A DNA stretch of 64,000 bases, from the IMG/VR virus record IMGVR_UViG_3300045988_112440, one strand, 5' to 3'. Every line of letters starts with the position of its first letter. Within the stretch, counting starts at the first letter, position 1. Positions 31,247 to 36,386 of this stretch are shown here, one piece after another. Source of the DNA: a virus. Below the pieces are notes generated by a model. That model saw only the letters and a list, made by a program, of their open reading frames with translations. It ran no database searches and was not told the DNA's origin. Made by a program: the position numbers and the translations under genes.

Positions 31247-33460
31247 ATGAGAACGCTTTTGCTGTTCCGTGGAGCACCAGGTTGTGGGAAGTCCACCTAT
31301 ATTAAAGAGCATAATCTTGAACAGTACGTATTGAGTGCTGATACACTTCGCCTTATGTGCCAGAGCGCACAGGAAACACCTGCCGGGCAGATGGAGATTT
31401 CTCCGCAGAATGATGATGTTGTATGGGAGATGCTTTTCAAACTGCTTGAGGTGCGTATGAGTCATGGCGAGTTTACCGTGATTGATGCAACGAATTCCAA
31501 GACGGTCGAAATGAATCGTTATAAGAATCTGGCAAAACAGTATCGTTATCGGATGTATGTTATTGACATGACTGACCTTCCGATTGAGGAATGCAAACGA
31601 AGAAACGCTCAGAGAGAATGGCTGAAGCGAGTTCCTGAAGCGGCCATTGATAAGATGTACGCTCGGTTTGCTACTCAAAAAGTTCCTTCTGGCGTGACAG
31701 TTCTTCCTTCTACTACAGATGTGATGTCCGATTTGAATTACTGTCCGAATGACTTCAACCAGTGGAAGAAGATCCATGTCATCGGTGATGTTCATGGCTG
31801 TTATACTTGTTTAAGTGAATACCTTGGCGAGATGAAGGACGACGAACTTTATATTTTCGTTGGTGATTATCTCAATCGTGGCATCGAAAACGTTGAGGTA
31901 TTCAAGTTCTTGTGTGATGTTGTAAATAACAACCGCAAGAATGTGATCCTTTTGGAAGGGAATCACGAGCGTTGGCTGAACAAGTGGGGGCATGATGAAC
32001 CGGTTCAGAGTGAAGAGTTTGCAAACTACACTCGTCCGCAGCTTTTTAAAGCTGGTATTGATAAGAACACTGCTCGTAAGATCTATTCCAGAGTCGGCCA
32101 GTGTGCCTACTTTGAGTATGATGGTAAGCGGTATTTCGTGAGCCACGGTGGTTTGAGTTATCTGCCTTATTTTCTTCCTTTCGTATCTGCTGACCAGATG
32201 ATCAAAGGTGTAGGTCGCTATCCTGATATGCTAACCGTGGCTGAGTCTTGGGAAAAATCGATGCCTGATAGCTATATTCAGATATTCGGTCATCGAAATG
32301 TGCAGGATGTTCCTATTGATATGGGGCATCGGTGCTACAACCTCGAAGGAAAAATCGAGTTTGGTGGATATCTCCGTTGCGTGGAACTTGAACACGGTCA
32401 GCCCGTCAAGTGTGTAGAAACCAAGAATGATGTATTCCGAAAAGAGGAACCAAAGACCGAATCTGCCGTTGAAATGAAAACTGAGTTCGATAACGCAGAA
32501 CTTGTTAGTAAGATGCGTCAAAGCAAATATGTGTTTGAGAAGCGATTCGGAGATATTTCTTCTTTCAACTTCTCTCGTGAAGCATTTTATAAGAAGCATT
32601 GGGATGAGGTTTCTACCAAAGCAAGGGGATTGTTCATTAACACAAAGACGAATAAGATTGTAGCTCGAAGCTATGATAAGTTCTTTGCGGTTGATGAGCG
32701 GAATGAAACGAGAATTGGAAACCTACAGAACACTTTGAAGTTCCCGGTGACTGCGTATCTAAAAGAGAACGGATTTCTTGGTATCATTTCGTATGATGCA
32801 GAACAGGATGGCCTGTTCATTGCAAGTAAATCCACTCCTGAAGGGCCTTTTGCAGATATGTTCCGAAAGATTCTCATGGATACGACTTCTGATGAAGATC
32901 GTAAGAATCTGAAAGAAGTTGCAAAAGAGAATGGCTCCATCATCTTCGAGGTGATTGATCCTGTGAATGATGCTCATATCATTGAATACAAGAAACCACA
33001 CATTGTTTTGCTGGATATTATTGCGAATGATATGAACTTCAGTGTGATGGATTACGATGATCTGAAGCGTGTTGCTGAAAAGTGTCATTTGCAGATTAAG
33101 GAGAAGGTTAAGACTTTTGAGAACTGGAGTAAATTTTATCCTTGGTACGAGGAAGTCATGAACGAGAACTATCTGCATCATGGCTTTGAACACGTTGAAG
33201 GCTTTGTTTTGCGAGACAGCAACAATTTTATGTTTAAGATGAAGCTTCCTTATTATAAGCACTGGAAGTTCTTGCGTGGTGTCATGCAGAGTGTCCAGAA
33301 GCGTGGTTATTACGAAAACACTGCCAAGCTATTTACTGCTGAGGATAACCTGTTCTATGGTTGGATGCGTGAGCAACGAGAGAAAGACCAGGAGTCTTTT
33401 TGCAAGAAGGGTATTATTCAGCTGCGGAATGAGTTCTACGCAAGTCAGCAGAAGAGCTGA
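31247..33460 (+). CDS. trifunctional polynucleotide kinase / metallophosphatase / ligase (Pnkp-like RNA repair enzyme)
   Basis: ORF track. P-loop GAPGCGKST. Phosphoesterase motifs GDVHGC, GDYLNRG and GNHE. Ligase-type motifs KENG, EGFVLRD and FKMKL. Confidence 0.8.
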   Translation: MRTLLLFRGAPGCGKSTYIKEHNLEQYVLSADTLRLMCQSAQETPAGQMEISPQNDDVVWEMLFKLLEVRMSHGEFTVIDATNSKTVEMNRYKNLAKQYRYRMYVIDMTDLPIEECKRRNAQREWLKRVPEAAIDKMYARFATQKVPSGVTVLPSTTDVMSDLNYCPNDFNQWKKIHVIGDVHGCYTCLSEYLGEMKDDELYIFVGDYLNRGIENVEVFKFLCDVVNNNRKNVILLEGNHERWLNKWGHDEPVQSEEFANYTRPQLFKAGIDKNTARKIYSRVGQCAYFEYDGKRYFVSHGGLSYLPYFLPFVSADQMIKGVGRYPDMLTVAESWEKSMPDSYIQIFGHRNVQDVPIDMGHRCYNLEGKIEFGGYLRCVELEHGQPVKCVETKNDVFRKEEPKTESAVEMKTEFDNAELVSKMRQSKYVFEKRFGDISSFNFSREAFYKKHWDEVSTKARGLFINTKTNKIVARSYDKFFAVDERNETRIGNLQNTLKFPVTAYLKENGFLGIISYDAEQDGLFIASKSTPEGPFADMFRKILMDTTSDEDRKNLKEVAKENGSIIFEVIDPVNDAHIIEYKKPHIVLLDIIANDMNFSVMDYDDLKRVAEKCHLQIKEKVKTFENWSKFYPWYEEVMNENYLHHGFEHVEGFVLRDSNNFMFKMKLPYYKHWKFLRGVMQSVQKRGYYENTAKLFTAEDNLFYGWMREQREKDQESFCKKGIIQLRNEFYASQQKS

Positions 33461-33575: not shown

Positions 33576-33660
33576 GGGGATATGGTGAAATTGGCAGCCA
33601 CGCTTGATTCAAACTCAAGTGTCGAAAGACGTATCGGTTCAAATCCGATTATCCCTACCA
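33576..33660 (+). tRNA. tRNA-Leu(CAA): tRNA-Leu (anticodon CAA), type II, CCA encoded
   Basis: Hand-folded. Acceptor GGGGATA/TATCCCT. Anticodon stem CTTGA/TCAAG with loop TTCAAAC. Long variable arm. T arm ATCGG-TTCAAAT-CCGAT. Confidence 0.85.
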
Positions 33661-33857
33661 TGAAGATCAGTTGTTCTGGCTAGATCGGGGATTGGCCGTT
33701 CATTGGCAAACGACAGGTATCATACCGGTAAAGGATGCCGAGCCAAATAGGAAGGGGAATAAGGTGCAAGCCGAGTAGCTGTCGGACGAATACCCTTCAG
33801 GTAGCCAGTAAACCGGAATGTAAAACAAATGTTGGCTGTTTCTGATCTTCTATATAA
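33661..33857 (+). ncRNA. 197-nt structured spacer (unclassified candidate ncRNA)
   Basis: Nested helices: 33662-33670/33842-33850 (9 bp), 33676-33682/33802-33808 (7 bp), and two internal arms. Confidence 0.35.
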
Positions 33858-33940
33858 GCTACCGTGGTGGAATGGCAGACACCGGAGACTTAAAATCTCC
33901 TGTCGGAAACGACGTGCCCGTTCAAGTCGGGTCGGTAGCA
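33858..33940 (+). tRNA. tRNA-Leu(UAA): tRNA-Leu (anticodon UAA), type II
   Basis: Acceptor GCTACCG/CGGTAGC. Anticodon stem GGAGA/TCTCC with loop CTTAAAA. Long variable arm. No CCA encoded. Confidence 0.85.
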
Positions 33941-33947
33941 TTGATAT

Positions 33948-34023
33948 CCGGGTGTAGCTCAGTTGGAAGAGCGCGTGCTTTGGGAGCATGAGGCCGCAGG
34001 ATCGTGACCTGTCACTCGGACCA
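33948..34023 (+). tRNA. tRNA-Pro(UGG): tRNA-Pro (anticodon UGG)
   Basis: Acceptor CCGGGTG/CACTCGG (C1-G72). D arm GCTC..GAGC. Anticodon loop TTTGGGA. CCA encoded. Confidence 0.85.
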
Positions 34024-34056
34024 ACCCGAAAGGGCATGTAGAATTTTTCATTCACA

Positions 34057-34110
34057 TTATTCCCAGCTCTCTGGAAACGGAGCAGTGTGACGTAGTAAGC
34101 TGGGCATATG
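34057..34110 (+). ncRNA. covarying spacer element, copy a
   Basis: ATTATT CCCAGCT [CTCTG-GAAA-CGGAG] CAGTGTGACGTAGTA AGCTGGG. Confidence 0.5.
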
Positions 34111-34112
34111 CT

Positions 34113-34183
34113 GCGCCATCGCCAAGCGGTAAGGCAGAGGACTTTGACTCCTCCATCACAGGTTCGACCCCTGTTGGCGCAAT
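34113..34183 (+). tRNA. tRNA-Gln(UUG): tRNA-Gln (anticodon UUG)
   Basis: Acceptor TGCGCCA/TGGCGCA (U1-A72). Anticodon stem GAGGA/TCCTC with loop CTTTGAC. T arm ACAGG-TTCGACC-CCTGT. Confidence 0.8.
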
Positions 34184-34187
34184 TTAT

Positions 34188-34269
34188 GCGGATATGGTGG
34201 AATGGCAGACACGCCAGACTTAGGATCTGGTGCTTCGGCGTGTGGGTTCGATGCCCACTATCCGCACCA
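34188..34269 (+). tRNA. tRNA-Leu(UAG): tRNA-Leu (anticodon UAG), type II, CCA encoded
   Basis: Acceptor GCGGATA/TATCCGC. Anticodon stem CCAGA/TCTGG with loop CTTAGGA. Variable arm TGCTTCGGCGT. Confidence 0.85.
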
Positions 34270-34319
34270 CGATCATAGAATGGTTGCGTACCGTTTGTTG
34301 ATCTCCTTTGACTGCCACT

Positions 34320-34375
34320 ATTATTCCCAGCTCACCAGTGATGGTGCAGTAGTGCTTTGTAAGCTGGGTGATTAT
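34320..34375 (+). ncRNA. covarying spacer element, copy b
   Basis: ATTATT CCCAGCT [CACCA-GTGA-TGGTG] CAGTAGTGCTTTGTA AGCTGGG. Confidence 0.5.
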
Positions 34376-34450
34376 GCAGCGGTCGTACAATGGTTAGTAT
34401 ATCAGCCTTCCAAGCTGAGGATGAGGTTTCGACTACCTTTCGCTGCTCCA
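34376..34450 (+). tRNA. tRNA-Gly(UCC): tRNA-Gly (anticodon UCC)
   Basis: Acceptor GCAGCGG/TCGCTGC. Anticodon stem TCAGC/GCTGA with loop CTTCCAA. Discriminator U. CCA encoded. Confidence 0.85.
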
Positions 34451-34545
34451 ATCTCGTATGGGTAGGATTTTTAGCGGTCAAATCCGGCTGCGCCTGTGCG
34501 AGATACCACCCCGAAAGGGGAGAGATATAGGAAATGTGCATCACT

Positions 34546-34600
34546 GTTATTCCTTCCTCGTCTATATGATATAGATGCAATAGTGTTTATAAGGAAGGTT
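34546..34600 (+). ncRNA. covarying spacer element, copy c
   Basis: GTTATT CCTTCCT cg[TCTATA-TGA-TATAGA] TGCAATAGTGTTTATA AGGAAGG. A further hairpin TCCCAGT/ACTGGGA follows at 34600-34633. Confidence 0.45.
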
Positions 34601-34637
34601 CCCAGTTGAATAGTTGCAGCTGTTTGACTGGGAATAT

Positions 34638-34714
34638 GGGATAGTAGCTCAGTTGGTCAGAGCTGGCGGCTCATAACCGCTTGGTCGCGAGTTCAAATCT
34701 TGCCTGTCCCACCA
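34638..34714 (+). tRNA. tRNA-Met(CAU): tRNA with CAU anticodon (elongator Met or Ile2), CCA encoded
   Basis: Acceptor GGGATAG/CTGTCCC (G1-C72, so not initiator-like). Anticodon loop CTCATAA. T arm GCGAG-TTCAAAT-CTTGC. Confidence 0.8.
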
Positions 34715-34808
34715 GCCCAATAGGGTATACATAAAATTTTTGTTTTATAAGCGATGAAATAATATGACGTTGATACGTCTATTATTTTTTCGCTCATTTT
34801 CGGAGATT

Positions 34809-34829: not shown

Positions 34830-34846
34830 TAAAAGGAGGTGGTTTG

Positions 34847-36386
34847 GTGAAACATTATGGAAGTATTTGCGAGATTGATGGTTCTAAGATTGAGCCTGTC
34901 TCGTGTATCACTGGTGGTTCACCTTGTTAGCCAAGACCTTTCTATTGCCGGTAAGCGGGCAGGTTTGGCTGGAGAACGGTCTGGTCTATTTATGGAAATG
35001 ATTCGTGTGATAAAGGAAATGAGGGATGCCACCAATGGAGAATGTCCAAAATTTGCAATCTGGGAAAATGTTAGAGGAGCACTTTCCTCAAACAACGGAG
35101 AAGACTTCCGATGCGTCTTGGAAGAATTTGCACACATCGTCGAAGCAGACGCTACAATTCCTAAACCTTCGGGAAAAGGCGGAAAATGGTCTAAATCCGG
35201 CGCAATTTCCGGTAATGGATGGTCTTTGGCATGGAGACTCTTTGATGCTCAATATTGGGGAGTGCCCCAACGTCGTCAAAGAATCGCGCTTGTCATGGAT
35301 TTTAGAGGACAACGTGCCGCAGAAATACTATTTGAGCGCACGGGCGTGCCAGGGAATCCTGACGAGAGCATCCCGACGTGGCAAAGCTTTGCCAGAATTA
35401 CTGAAGAATGCACTGCTAAAGATGATCGAGTGGTGGGAGAAAAAAGCTTTTGTATTGTCGGAAACATGATTGACAGAGAAACCAATATGAACGGGACTGG
35501 TGTAAAAGAAGATACTGCTTTTACTATAAACACTATTGACCGTAATGCTGTTGCCTATACTTTAAAGATTCGTTCAGGATGCGAAGGTGGTGGCAAAGGC
35601 GCACTGGTACAGACCGAGAAGAGTGCAACGCTTTCTACATTGCAAGATCAAACGCTAATCTGCTTGGCAGACAACACCTCTTTACATAATTTAAAACAAA
35701 AGATTTGTGTCTTGAATGATCAGGGCGGTAGTGTAATGAATGTTTCTTACGATATTGTAGGAACAATAAGAGCACAAGAGCATGGTCATCAACCAATTGT
35801 ATTTGAGAGCCATAGTCAAGATGCTCGATACACCCAGCAAGGTAATACAAGTCCGGCTTGTACGGCTCAATGGGGAACTGGTGGCAATAATATGCCGCTT
35901 GTTGCCGAAAAGAAAGCCTTTGCAATGCAACGCATTGGTGAATACAAGGAAAGTGAACAAGCTAGTACGATGAAATCTCGTGACTACAAGGATGCTACTG
36001 ACTTGATTGCAGAGAAGGAAACGAAGAATCTGCAATGGATTGTTCGTCGCCTGACTCCTGTTGAGTGTGAACGGTTACAGGGTTTTCCTGATGGATGGAC
36101 CGATATTGGCGAGTGGTTTGATGAGAATGGTAAAAAGCACAAACCTGCCGATTCTCCTCGTTACAAAGCACTCGGTAATTCAATCGCTTTGCCTCAGTGG
36201 TATTGGATTTTCCAGAAAATGAAACCGTATATCGGTGAAAATCCCACGCTTGGCAGTCTTTTCGATGGAATTGGTGGCTTTCCGCTTGTCTTTGAAAGTA
36301 TGTATGGTGATGGTGCTGCTATCTGGGGATCAGAGATTGAACCGTTCTGCGTTGCAGTAACGAAGAAGCATTTCCCAGAAGACTAA
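34847..36386 (+). pseudogene. C5 cytosine DNA methyltransferase, circularly permuted motif order, frame broken at the PCQ motif
   Basis: GTG 34847 (7 nt after AGGAGG) encodes MKHYGSICEIDGSKIEPVSCITGGSPC, then TAG at 34928. The +1 frame (track ORF 34857-36386) continues QDLSIAGKRAG, ENV, QRRQR, GNSI and ends with LFDGIGGF...SEIEP. Confidence 0.7.

Follow-up and report, generated by a model that had tools for sequence, protein, structure and literature searches.

A gene for a DNA (cytosine-5) methyltransferase (C5-MTase) of a gut phage (IMG/VR virus record IMGVR_UViG_3300045988_112440) is broken by a stop codon and a frameshift directly after the codon for its catalytic cysteine, which raises the question of whether the gene is dead or is read in an unusual way. 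The record was analyzed as a window of 64,000 nucleotides (nt), and all coordinates below are positions in it; the methylase gene lies on the + strand. The break was found to have been kept by evolution for a long time, which suggests that the gene is not dead and that its decoding is probably nonstandard. Its GTG start at 34847 lies 7 nt after the Shine-Dalgarno (SD) sequence AGGAGG (34834 to 34839) and begins VKHYGSICEIDGSKIEPVSCITGGSPC. The frame-0 segment, GTG plus 26 codons (34847 to 34927, MKHYGSICEIDGSKIEPVSCITGGSPC), covers the motif III position and motif IV through the catalytic Cys, ending in GGSPC directly before a TAG at 34928 to 34930. This TAG is created by a 4-nt insertion, TAGC (34928 to 34931), which cuts the 27 codons off from the other 484 and shifts the rest of the gene to the +1 frame. 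The insertion can equivalently be placed as TTAG (34927 to 34930) within an ancestral TGC Cys codon, or as GTTA, and deletion of any of the three gives back the canonical GGSPCQDLSIAG.

The +1-frame methyltransferase body (34932 to 36386) reads QDLSIAGKRAGL and onward to the stop TAA at 36384 to 36386. It opens with QDLSIAG, the rest of motif IV, followed by ENV (motif VI, 35064 to 35072), QRRQR (motif VIII, 35268 to 35282), a modular target recognition domain (TRD) region, RRLTPVECERLQGFPDGW (motif IX, 36045 to 36098), GNSI (motif X, 36174 to 36185), LFDGIGGF (motif I, the S-adenosylmethionine [AdoMet] site, 36258 to 36281), and WGSEIEP (motif II, 36324 to 36344). The C5-MTase motifs IV (PC), VI (ENV), VIII (QxRxR), I (FxGxG), IX, and X were all present, the PC dipeptide in frame 0 and the remainder in the +1 frame, in the order III/IV-VI-VIII-TRD-IX-X-I-II. 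The repaired protein matched the PF00145 profile with 128.4 bits against a cutoff of 22, spread over three stretches, while an intact relative (P0042) scored 124 bits. No restriction enzyme was found among the neighboring genes. By these features, the locus is an orphan phage C5-MTase, as the original prediction had proposed from the letters alone, and the start, the SD spacing, the translation, and the position of the interruption exactly at Pro-Cys-Gln all agreed with that prediction. The enzyme is probably multispecific, and its role is most likely the shielding of phage DNA from host restriction.

The insertion was examined in 75 syntenic loci from gut phage genomes of ∼110 to 140 kb, in which the gene begins at the same codon with the same SD. 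Two allele classes were distinguished. In class A (29 of 74 loci, the window among them), the start is GTG and the junction is CCT TGT TAG C CAA GA; in class B, the homologous site is an intact CC. TGC CAA GAT. The junction CCTTGT-TAGC-CAAGA was identical in every class A copy. Four pattern scans with different anchors returned the inserted form only (41/41, 27/27, and 7/7 IMG/VR matches and 23/23 metagenome contigs from different projects). The insertion was present in ∼90 loci from IMG/VR and 23 separate metagenome contigs, several of the loci resampling the same contig. In these exact-anchor scans of IMG/VR and the JGI/ENA metagenomes, no intact or revertant class A junction was found for either the common or the diverged haplotype. 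Clusters of the frameshifted protein were present on hundreds of contigs in ENA, NCBI, JGI, and Logan. The insertion was thereby shown to be real and fixed, and an artifact was excluded; the 4 nt that might have been missing from other reads were found in every independent assembly. As an account of the break, a sequencing or assembly error or a reversible, phase-variable DNA indel is extremely improbable. Hypermutable-looking G-runs do occur elsewhere in relatives, but nothing of the kind lies at the 4-nt site: positions 34920 to 34935 contain no repeat tract, junction length is invariant among copies, and the same junction recurs across independent projects and assemblers with no copy lacking the 4 nt.

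Divergence among the carriers showed the insertion to be old. Flanking genes of carrier genomes were 86 to 95% identical, i.e., 5 to 14% different, and the 5′ part of the methylase gene differed by ∼17%; the insertion is therefore common to well-separated phage lineages. Between the window haplotype and the most diverged carrier haplotype, the synonymous divergence (dS) was 0.51 and the nonsynonymous divergence (dN) 0.036 (Nei-Gojobori). The insertion module, from the start codon to ENV, was joined to at least three different downstream modules, and blocks of the TRD region were present or absent, as in multispecific phage enzymes.

Both pieces of the gene were shown by these comparisons to be under strong purifying selection, each in its own frame. 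Among class A alleles, the 81 nt before the TAG contained 14 variable sites, 9 of which were synonymous third positions of frame 0 (P = 9e-4); in the annotated +1 frame, the same 81 nt gave 10/13 nonsynonymous and 3/13 synonymous changes. For diverged carrier haplotypes, dN/dS (NG86) before the junction was 0.07 in frame 0 but 2.1 when the annotated frame was used. Past the junction, dN/dS among class A haplotypes was 0.06 in the +1 frame over 47 codons. Intact class B alleles gave matching values, 0.17 to 0.18, by a cruder count. In the last 112 codons, 119 synonymous versus 74 nonsynonymous variable sites and no stops were counted (26 unique sequences). Downstream counts were made per subtype, since indels and mosaic alleles inflate a pooled count. 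The downstream open reading frame (ORF) was full length in 52/74 scorable copies, and all catalytic motifs were retained in the full-length class A copies; the 22/74 truncated copies were mainly of the A2 subtype or from low-coverage contigs. The site is thus conserved with both frames selected on their own sides, as at a +1 shift site. The pattern is unlike that of a gene killed when the insertion arose.

One explanation that leaves out the frame-0 peptide is a Cys-less, noncatalytic protein, such as a DNA-binding protein or a decoy, made from the +1 ORF alone from ATG 34857 or ATG 34878. It has in its favor that the 509-amino-acid ORF from ATG 34857 is open and is what the gene caller annotated. 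This explanation is very unlikely, as it accounts neither for purifying selection on the frame-0 peptide nor for the retention of all AdoMet-binding and catalytic motifs. Moreover, ATG 34857 is 17 nt from the SD, a poor start as had been supposed, and the N terminus of the +1 ORF is unconstrained (dN/dS of 2.1, as above).

The alternative that the alleles are inactive requires either a dispensable enzyme or a homing-resistant insertion spread by short-tract gene conversion, in which case the signs of selection would come from recently converted functional alleles. The methylase family is, from its insertions, a hot spot for mobile elements. LAGLIDADG inteins interrupt motif IV precisely between P and C in three relatives (P0227, P0249, and P0261), 3 nt away from the site of the insertion, and lie after ENV (motif VI) in a fourth (P0047), and an ORF with HNH endonuclease and helix-turn-helix domains was found inside motif IX (P0051 and L056). 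Allele mosaicism breaks at the ENV intein site. Speculatively, and also under the decoding reading favored below, the insertion may have arisen, or have been favored, by destroying an intein homing site, much as the bypassed 50-nt insert of T4 gene 60 blocks the homing endonuclease MobA (10.1101/2022.08.31.505936). The link is only circumstantial because a search for intein-bearing alleles with class A flanks gave none, four of five new matches being unrelated chance hits. Also in keeping with inactivity are the position of the stop and frameshift exactly at the nucleophile, the replacement of the motif III Asp in the commonest haplotypes, the further lesions of A2, and additional stops in a few copies, although these lie on contigs of 2 to 4x coverage; the contigs of very low coverage with extra lesions numbered two. 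Inactivity is nevertheless fairly unlikely. Relaxed selection and accumulating lesions, the marks of a pseudogene, were not seen outside A2: dN/dS between carriers was 0.06 to 0.07 at a dS of ∼0.5 on both sides and in the correct frames, most copies retain the full downstream ORF with its motifs, the exact-anchor scans of IMG/VR and the JGI/ENA metagenomes yielded no intact allele of either haplotype as a possible donor, and class A flanks were seen on none of the intein-bearing alleles. With regard to the three fates that had been proposed for the gene, a frameshift, inactivation, and phase variation, the data favor a decoding event or a split enzyme; simple inactivation is disfavored because of the selection data, and phase variation is unsupported because there was no repeat and no intact variant among ∼90 copies.

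Nonstandard decoding at UGU-UAG-C would be the simplest route to an active enzyme. In the class A lineage, 4 nt entered the catalytic Cys codon, converting TGC to TGT TAG C, and a ribosome reaching this point would hold peptidyl-tRNA-Cys in the P site while its A site contains UAG, a codon that is seldom used. Shifting by +1 at this stop would then yield GGSPC-S-QDLSIAG, with the junction peptide GGSPCSQDLSIAGK. Alternatively, in a 4-nt hop, the tRNA-Cys (anticodon GCA) would re-pair with AGC by two G:C pairs, CAA would be read next, and the product would be the canonical GGSPCQDLSIAG with an exact PCQDLS and the junction peptide GGSPCQDLSIAGK. The likely outcome would be a low, set amount of active methylase, and sister alleles may reach the same end through a CTG start, G-run tracts, or an invertible segment, although both suggestions are speculative. 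That both parts are still needed, and that translation links them through a +1 shift or a 4-nt hop at UGU-UAG-C, is the reading favored here, with a likelihood that we place slightly short of even.

The UAG directly after the Cys codon places a stop in the A site, as at a “shifty stop.” UAG is nearly unused as a terminator in the window, so it may be decoded slowly: TAG ended at most 1 of 68 ORFs of ≥100 amino acids on the coding strand, the figure for the spurious ORFs of the noncoding strand being 27 of 78, and the TAG trinucleotide was depleted on the + strand (420, versus 2022 for TGA). Reassignment of TAG was rejected for this part of the genome, as ORFs did not merge when it was treated as sense; with TAG read as Gln, the result is PCQ followed by PRPFYCR and a stop, and the gene is not rescued. 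There is documented precedent for stop-hops from one codon to a nearly matching one and for “savior” indels that frameshifting at a low level rescues (PMC5009743). The literature searched contained no report of frameshifting in these methylases.

Several observations weigh against decoding across the insertion. The re-pairing of prfB- or PSA-type +1 shifts is lacking, as the move from UGU to GUU leaves tRNA-Cys with no pairing, and the hop landing codon AGC matches tRNA-Cys at only 2/3 positions. There is no SD-like stimulator at prfB spacing at the junction; a GGUGG lies 7 nt upstream, and it is also found (as GGAGG) in intact alleles. No significant stimulatory structure or hairpin was detected in the flanking RNA (z = 0.46), and RNA structure as the driver of the shift was rejected on that value. 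ARAGORN and Rfam identified seven ordinary upstream tRNAs and no suppressor or otherwise unusual tRNA nearby, and a quadruplet-decoding or suppressor tRNA was accordingly dropped from consideration. A +1 shift would put a Ser into the catalytic loop. Motif III of the window reads GSIC where GDIT is usual, and the commonest haplotypes have S or N for the motif III Asp, residues also seen there in intact relatives. The protein product is so far a predicted one. The four pattern scans all needed exact anchor sequences, and recombination from unsampled intact alleles could in principle have imported the selected variation. Finally, the A2 subtype (17 loci) has extra disruptions, namely, a variable G7 to G11 tract and a split of the form TAA-SD-TTG, which may represent decay or further switch or split devices. 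The tract lies in the TRD and has 7, 8, 10, or 11 bases (e.g., in L067, L071, L077, and L094); ∼170 nt past it, for example in L094, a TAA precedes a GGAGGG that in turn lies 7 nt before a TTG in the same frame (CVKH and stop, then L-EKETSLHNLKQ). This arrangement looks like two translationally coupled ORFs and not a random stop.

Selection on both sides in two frames would also be accounted for by a split enzyme, in which a 27-residue peptide, with the catalytic Cys as its last residue, assembles noncovalently with the other 484 residues, the second part being made by termination-reinitiation at, e.g., GTG 34914, a +1-frame codon that lies 14 nt upstream of the TAG. C5-MTases tolerate fragmentation, with M.AquI and M.EcoHK31I as natural heterodimers (PMC2836561; PMC3404938), and many artificial fragment pairs complement, including pairs of the Type B permutants described below (PMC5944983). 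The Gly-Gly codons of class A are GGT GGT, which give CTG/GTG in the +1 frame, where class B has GGA GGC, and the A2 alleles are split again by TAA-GGAGGG-N7-TTG. We nonetheless consider a split enzyme unlikely. There is no precedent for a 27-residue fragment that holds both the nucleophile and a core beta-strand and is cut within the catalytic PCQ loop, GTG 34914 has no SD, and the +1 codons before the junction are free of amino acid constraint, with the same dN/dS of 2.1.

Decoding across UGU-UAG-C, the favored reading, would produce an enzyme whose motif order is itself unusual. In phmmer comparisons with M.HhaI, query residues 469 to 508 aligned with HhaI 16 to 53 (motifs I and II), 4 to 89 with 58 to 136, 125 to 152 with 146 to 172, and 398 to 447 with 271 to 308. 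Likewise, in blastp against a relative with normal order, window residues 1 to 191 matched residues 45 to 236 (55% identity) and residues 467 to 510 matched residues 3 to 44 (61% identity). The break point could be placed precisely: the relative reads VTKRHFPD|MVHYGDVT, while the window protein ends in VTKKHFPED and starts with MKHYG. Hence, the ∼50 N-terminal residues of the ordinary enzyme, with motifs I and II and the AdoMet site, have moved to the C terminus, and the permuted proteins start at motif III (M-K-H-Y/L-G-D-I-T). A permuted order with a break point other than that of M.BssHII had been suggested for this gene, and both parts of the suggestion held, with the 128-bit PF00145 match divided among three stretches.

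The same arrangement was found family-wide, which excludes a misassembled tandem duplication. A protein search gave hundreds of close relatives, all with motifs I and II at the C-terminal end. When 1.84 billion cluster representatives were searched exhaustively, 35,636 matched; among the best 150 clusters at 50% identity, at least 89 were strictly permuted and ∼21 had the normal order. The permuted clusters begin with M[KI]H[LY]GDITKI...GGSPCQDL and end with WASEIEEFPIAVTK..F, so that the termini agree across the family. More distant permuted relatives, among them L052, L059, L075, and those of the cultured Faecalibacterium phages FP_Toutatis and Lelie, are intact and open with ATG at the homologous codon, and the SD and start position are kept in class B, with a CTG start, and in the distant relatives. 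In representative bacterial genomes, explicit motif ordering showed the normal order in 78/78 of the best classifiable matches; permuted relatives in bacterial genomes were thereby rejected, and the permuted form looks phage-borne. A structure prediction for the intact permuted relative P0042 had a mean predicted local distance difference test score of 29.7 from an alignment of near-identical sequences and contributes nothing.

The sequence comparisons showed circular permutation, with the break between motifs II and III, to be a true trait of a large family. Slaska-Kiss et al. engineered this topology in 2018 as Type B, in which the new N terminus lies between motifs II and III and the old termini are joined, found it as active as the wild type, and reported it absent from nature; all 27 natural permutants listed there break in the variable region (PMC5944983). 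The window protein has the Type B arrangement and not that of Type H, with a break in the variable region and the order IX-X-I...VIII. No natural Type B permutant was described in the literature searched. By their termini and motif order, the members of this family were shown to be natural Type B permutants, and they are common in gut phages.

A second departure from the annotated reading frame was found after motif VIII. An ORF hidden in the +1 frame relative to the annotated frame overlaps the gene at 35035 to 35469, with in-frame ATGs at 35026 and 35035, GAGGG (35021 to 35025) 9 nt before ATG 35035, and a stop TGA at 35467 to 35469. Its conserved part, at ∼35290 to 35445, encodes LSWILEDNVPQKYYLSARACQGILTRASRRGKALPELLKNALLKMIEWW, with the consensus ILE..KYYLS..AC.GIL.RA..RGK.LP of a canonical C5-MTase element. 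From 35151 to 35288, dN/dS was 0.17 in the annotated frame and 1.01 in the overlapping +1 frame; the relation was reversed at 35290 to 35370 (0.95 annotated versus 0.10 hidden) and at 35370 to 35466 (1.39 versus 0.22). A codon-phase scan showed the selected frame switching at ∼35290 to 35310 and returning by ∼35450 to 35520 in class A and class B alike.

The hidden arrangement was present in 248/248 loci with motif VIII (including L149, L160, L189, L197, L220, and L307 to L309), among them phages of Mycobacterium (Omega), Vibrio (CP-T1), and Streptococcus (Javan422). In 246/248 loci, the spacing between the Gln codon of motif VIII and the hidden frame is exactly 55 nt; in the other two, it is 58 and 61 nt. 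Across 150 unique sequences, identity over the same DNA was 72% in the hidden frame and 47% in the annotated frame. At codon resolution, motif VIII was constrained in the annotated frame only, codons +8 to +24 were conserved in both frames, and codons +26 to +48 were constrained in the hidden frame only, which terminates where the first TRD motif is reached; “ILFE,” a motif of the annotated frame, is a shadow of the hidden YYLS. Homology was found between the hidden peptide and RLREILEEYVDEKYYLS of the characterized multispecific rho11s MTase (11/17 identical; E = 3e-4), where, as only in unrelated canonical enzymes of this sort, the element shares the frame of motif VIII. Among the subfamily genomes examined, none had motif VIII and the KYYLS element in one frame, and a long ORF read the hidden frame in 2/150 representatives, both lacking motif VIII. 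Database proteins with the hidden peptide were short unannotated ORFs only. The peptide alone had no Pfam or NCBIfam match, and no description of the arrangement was found in the searchable literature. The hidden frame was thus shown by comparative analysis to be conserved across phyla and to be the only selected frame in that region, and the arrangement appears universal in a C5-MTase subfamily of phages and bacteria of the Firmicutes, Actinobacteria, and Proteobacteria.

Two routes to expression of the hidden frame are possibilities. Ribosomes might change frame after motif VIII, or the hidden ORF, from ATG 35035 to the TGA, might encode a separate overlapping subunit. An A6 run at 35440 to 35445, at the end of the conserved part, may allow a −1 slip by which ribosomes regain the annotated frame, and some relatives have G-runs at this position; a universal −1 slip site was unsupported, as 69/72 bacterial loci had no homopolymer run. 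It is possible, though less likely than not, that the methylase is made from three frames: frame 0, +1 over the insert, +1 again into the hidden frame after motif VIII, and then back to the annotated frame. If this were true, it would mean widespread unrecognized recoding, or an overlapping essential subunit, in a textbook enzyme family, and with it the first Type B permutation from nature and a short bypass of a new kind at a codon of the active site. The hidden frame, the large permuted family, and the inverton described below are additions to what was originally predicted for the locus.

Relatives of the window gene carry other devices that bear on expression. All 42 intact class B alleles (L010 and L021 to L074) have CTG at the position homologous to window 34847, with AGGAGG 8 nt before it; CTG is taken as the class B start because an in-frame TGA two codons upstream excludes another. 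A phage lineage is thus fixed for CTG, which is rare as a start codon. In the cultured Faecalibacterium phages, G tracts lie between motifs VI and VIII (G9 in FP_Toutatis, L220, at about 2820; G14 in Lelie, L221), and G6 to G9 was found at the same site in many contigs (L227 to L306). Because of these runs, FP_Toutatis gp14 and gp15 are annotated as two “DNA methyltransferase” genes, and Lelie also has two. Among more distant loci, ∼23/80 had a frame change at two recurrent sites, often with G-runs. In Mycobacterium phage Omega (L307), gp127 and gp128 are adjacent “DNA methyltransferase” genes with a stop between them in the variable region; with the hidden +1 frame also present, they may be another split or recoded member.

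The invertible segment is bounded by an imperfect inverted repeat, the left arm of which (34729 to 34747, core TTTTGTTTTA) lies just 3′ of tRNA-Met and the right arm (35692 to 35710, core TAAAACAAAA) inside the gene, in the codons for SLHNLKQK. A clean inversion of the 971-bp segment between the 11-bp repeat cores was found in five independent class B contigs (L068, L069, L070, L072, and L074). The segment holds the SD together with the start codon and the ∼284 codons that open the gene, and in the inverted state the gene ends in SLHNLKQKF and a stop. Orientation was 5 inverted and 28 direct in class B and 0 inverted and 42 direct in class A. The occurrence of a CTG start, G-runs, an inverton, inteins, and a 4-nt insert in one family implies strong pressure to limit or switch methylase expression and points to an expression-tuning role for these devices.

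The genes flanking the methylase form a replication and repair module with SSB-like, Sak4-like, primase-like, and RecJ-like genes. No consensus promoter was found immediately upstream of the methylase gene. Further upstream, a 737-amino-acid Pnkp-Rnl1 fusion (31247 to 33460) combines a polynucleotide kinase (AAA_33), a metallophosphatase, and a T4 Rnl1-type RNA ligase, and the seven-tRNA array (Leu x3, Pro, Gln, Gly, and Met; 33576 to 34714) lies directly downstream of it. The pair resembles a tRNA repair module for the phage's own tRNAs.

Decoding across the insertion, the route by which the hidden frame would be expressed, and the link to homing endonucleases are what we infer from these data. 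The permuted family overturns a published negative, in that the most active engineered C5-MTase topology proves common in gut phages, including cultured Faecalibacterium phages, and natural Type B enzymes allow the proposed cost in AdoMet affinity to be tested. The 4-nt gap, under selection and placed just after the nucleophile codon, is a clean candidate for a new short bypass or frameshift or for a split active site. If the hidden segment belongs to the enzyme, the annotated proteins of a very large methylase subfamily may omit part of it, which would affect REBASE-style annotation, structure prediction, and the interpretation of phage methylomes.

Compared with known systems, the engineered Type B permutants (PMC5944983) share with the window enzyme an N terminus between motifs II and III and motifs I and II after X, but they are laboratory constructs, whereas the window enzyme belongs to a large natural phage family. 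The Type H enzymes M.BssHII, M.Alw26I, M2.Eco31IC, M.Esp3I, and M2.BsaI and the plant DRM2 are also permuted, likewise with a short linker from X to I; the Type H break is in the variable region (VIII/TRD) and the DRM break between motifs V and VI, in contrast to II/III here, and these enzymes serve restriction-modification systems and plant RNA-directed DNA methylation, respectively, whereas that of the window is a phage orphan. The multispecific Bacillus phage MTases rho11s, SPR, phi3T, and H2 are likewise orphan C5-MTases whose variable region is long and modular, and they share the post-VIII element RLREILEEYVDEKYYLS. Their motif order is normal, however, with KYYLS in the motif VIII frame, and multispecificity is only predicted for the window enzyme. 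The bypass of T4 gene 60, like the window, has a stop-led insert after the take-off codon at a highly conserved coding site, and the T4 insert is tolerated because ribosomes skip it. The T4 insert is 50 nt long versus 4 nt, and the window has no matched landing codon, take-off hairpin, or known nascent-peptide signal; the T4 insert blocks a homing endonuclease, and the window insertion is 3 nt from the LAGLIDADG intein site of its relatives. M.EcoHK31I and M.AquI are enzymes made from more than one frame or polypeptide (PMC2836561; PMC3404938), and in M.EcoHK31I the beta subunit is encoded in another frame inside the alpha gene (PMC2836561). The window gene, like all 248 loci of its subfamily, resembles M.EcoHK31I in having a second conserved frame inside the MTase gene, here in the variable region. 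The EcoHK31I beta subunit supplies motif IX, whereas in the window motif IX lies in the main frame (36045 to 36098) and the hidden frame supplies the post-VIII ILE..KYYLS..GIL.RA element.

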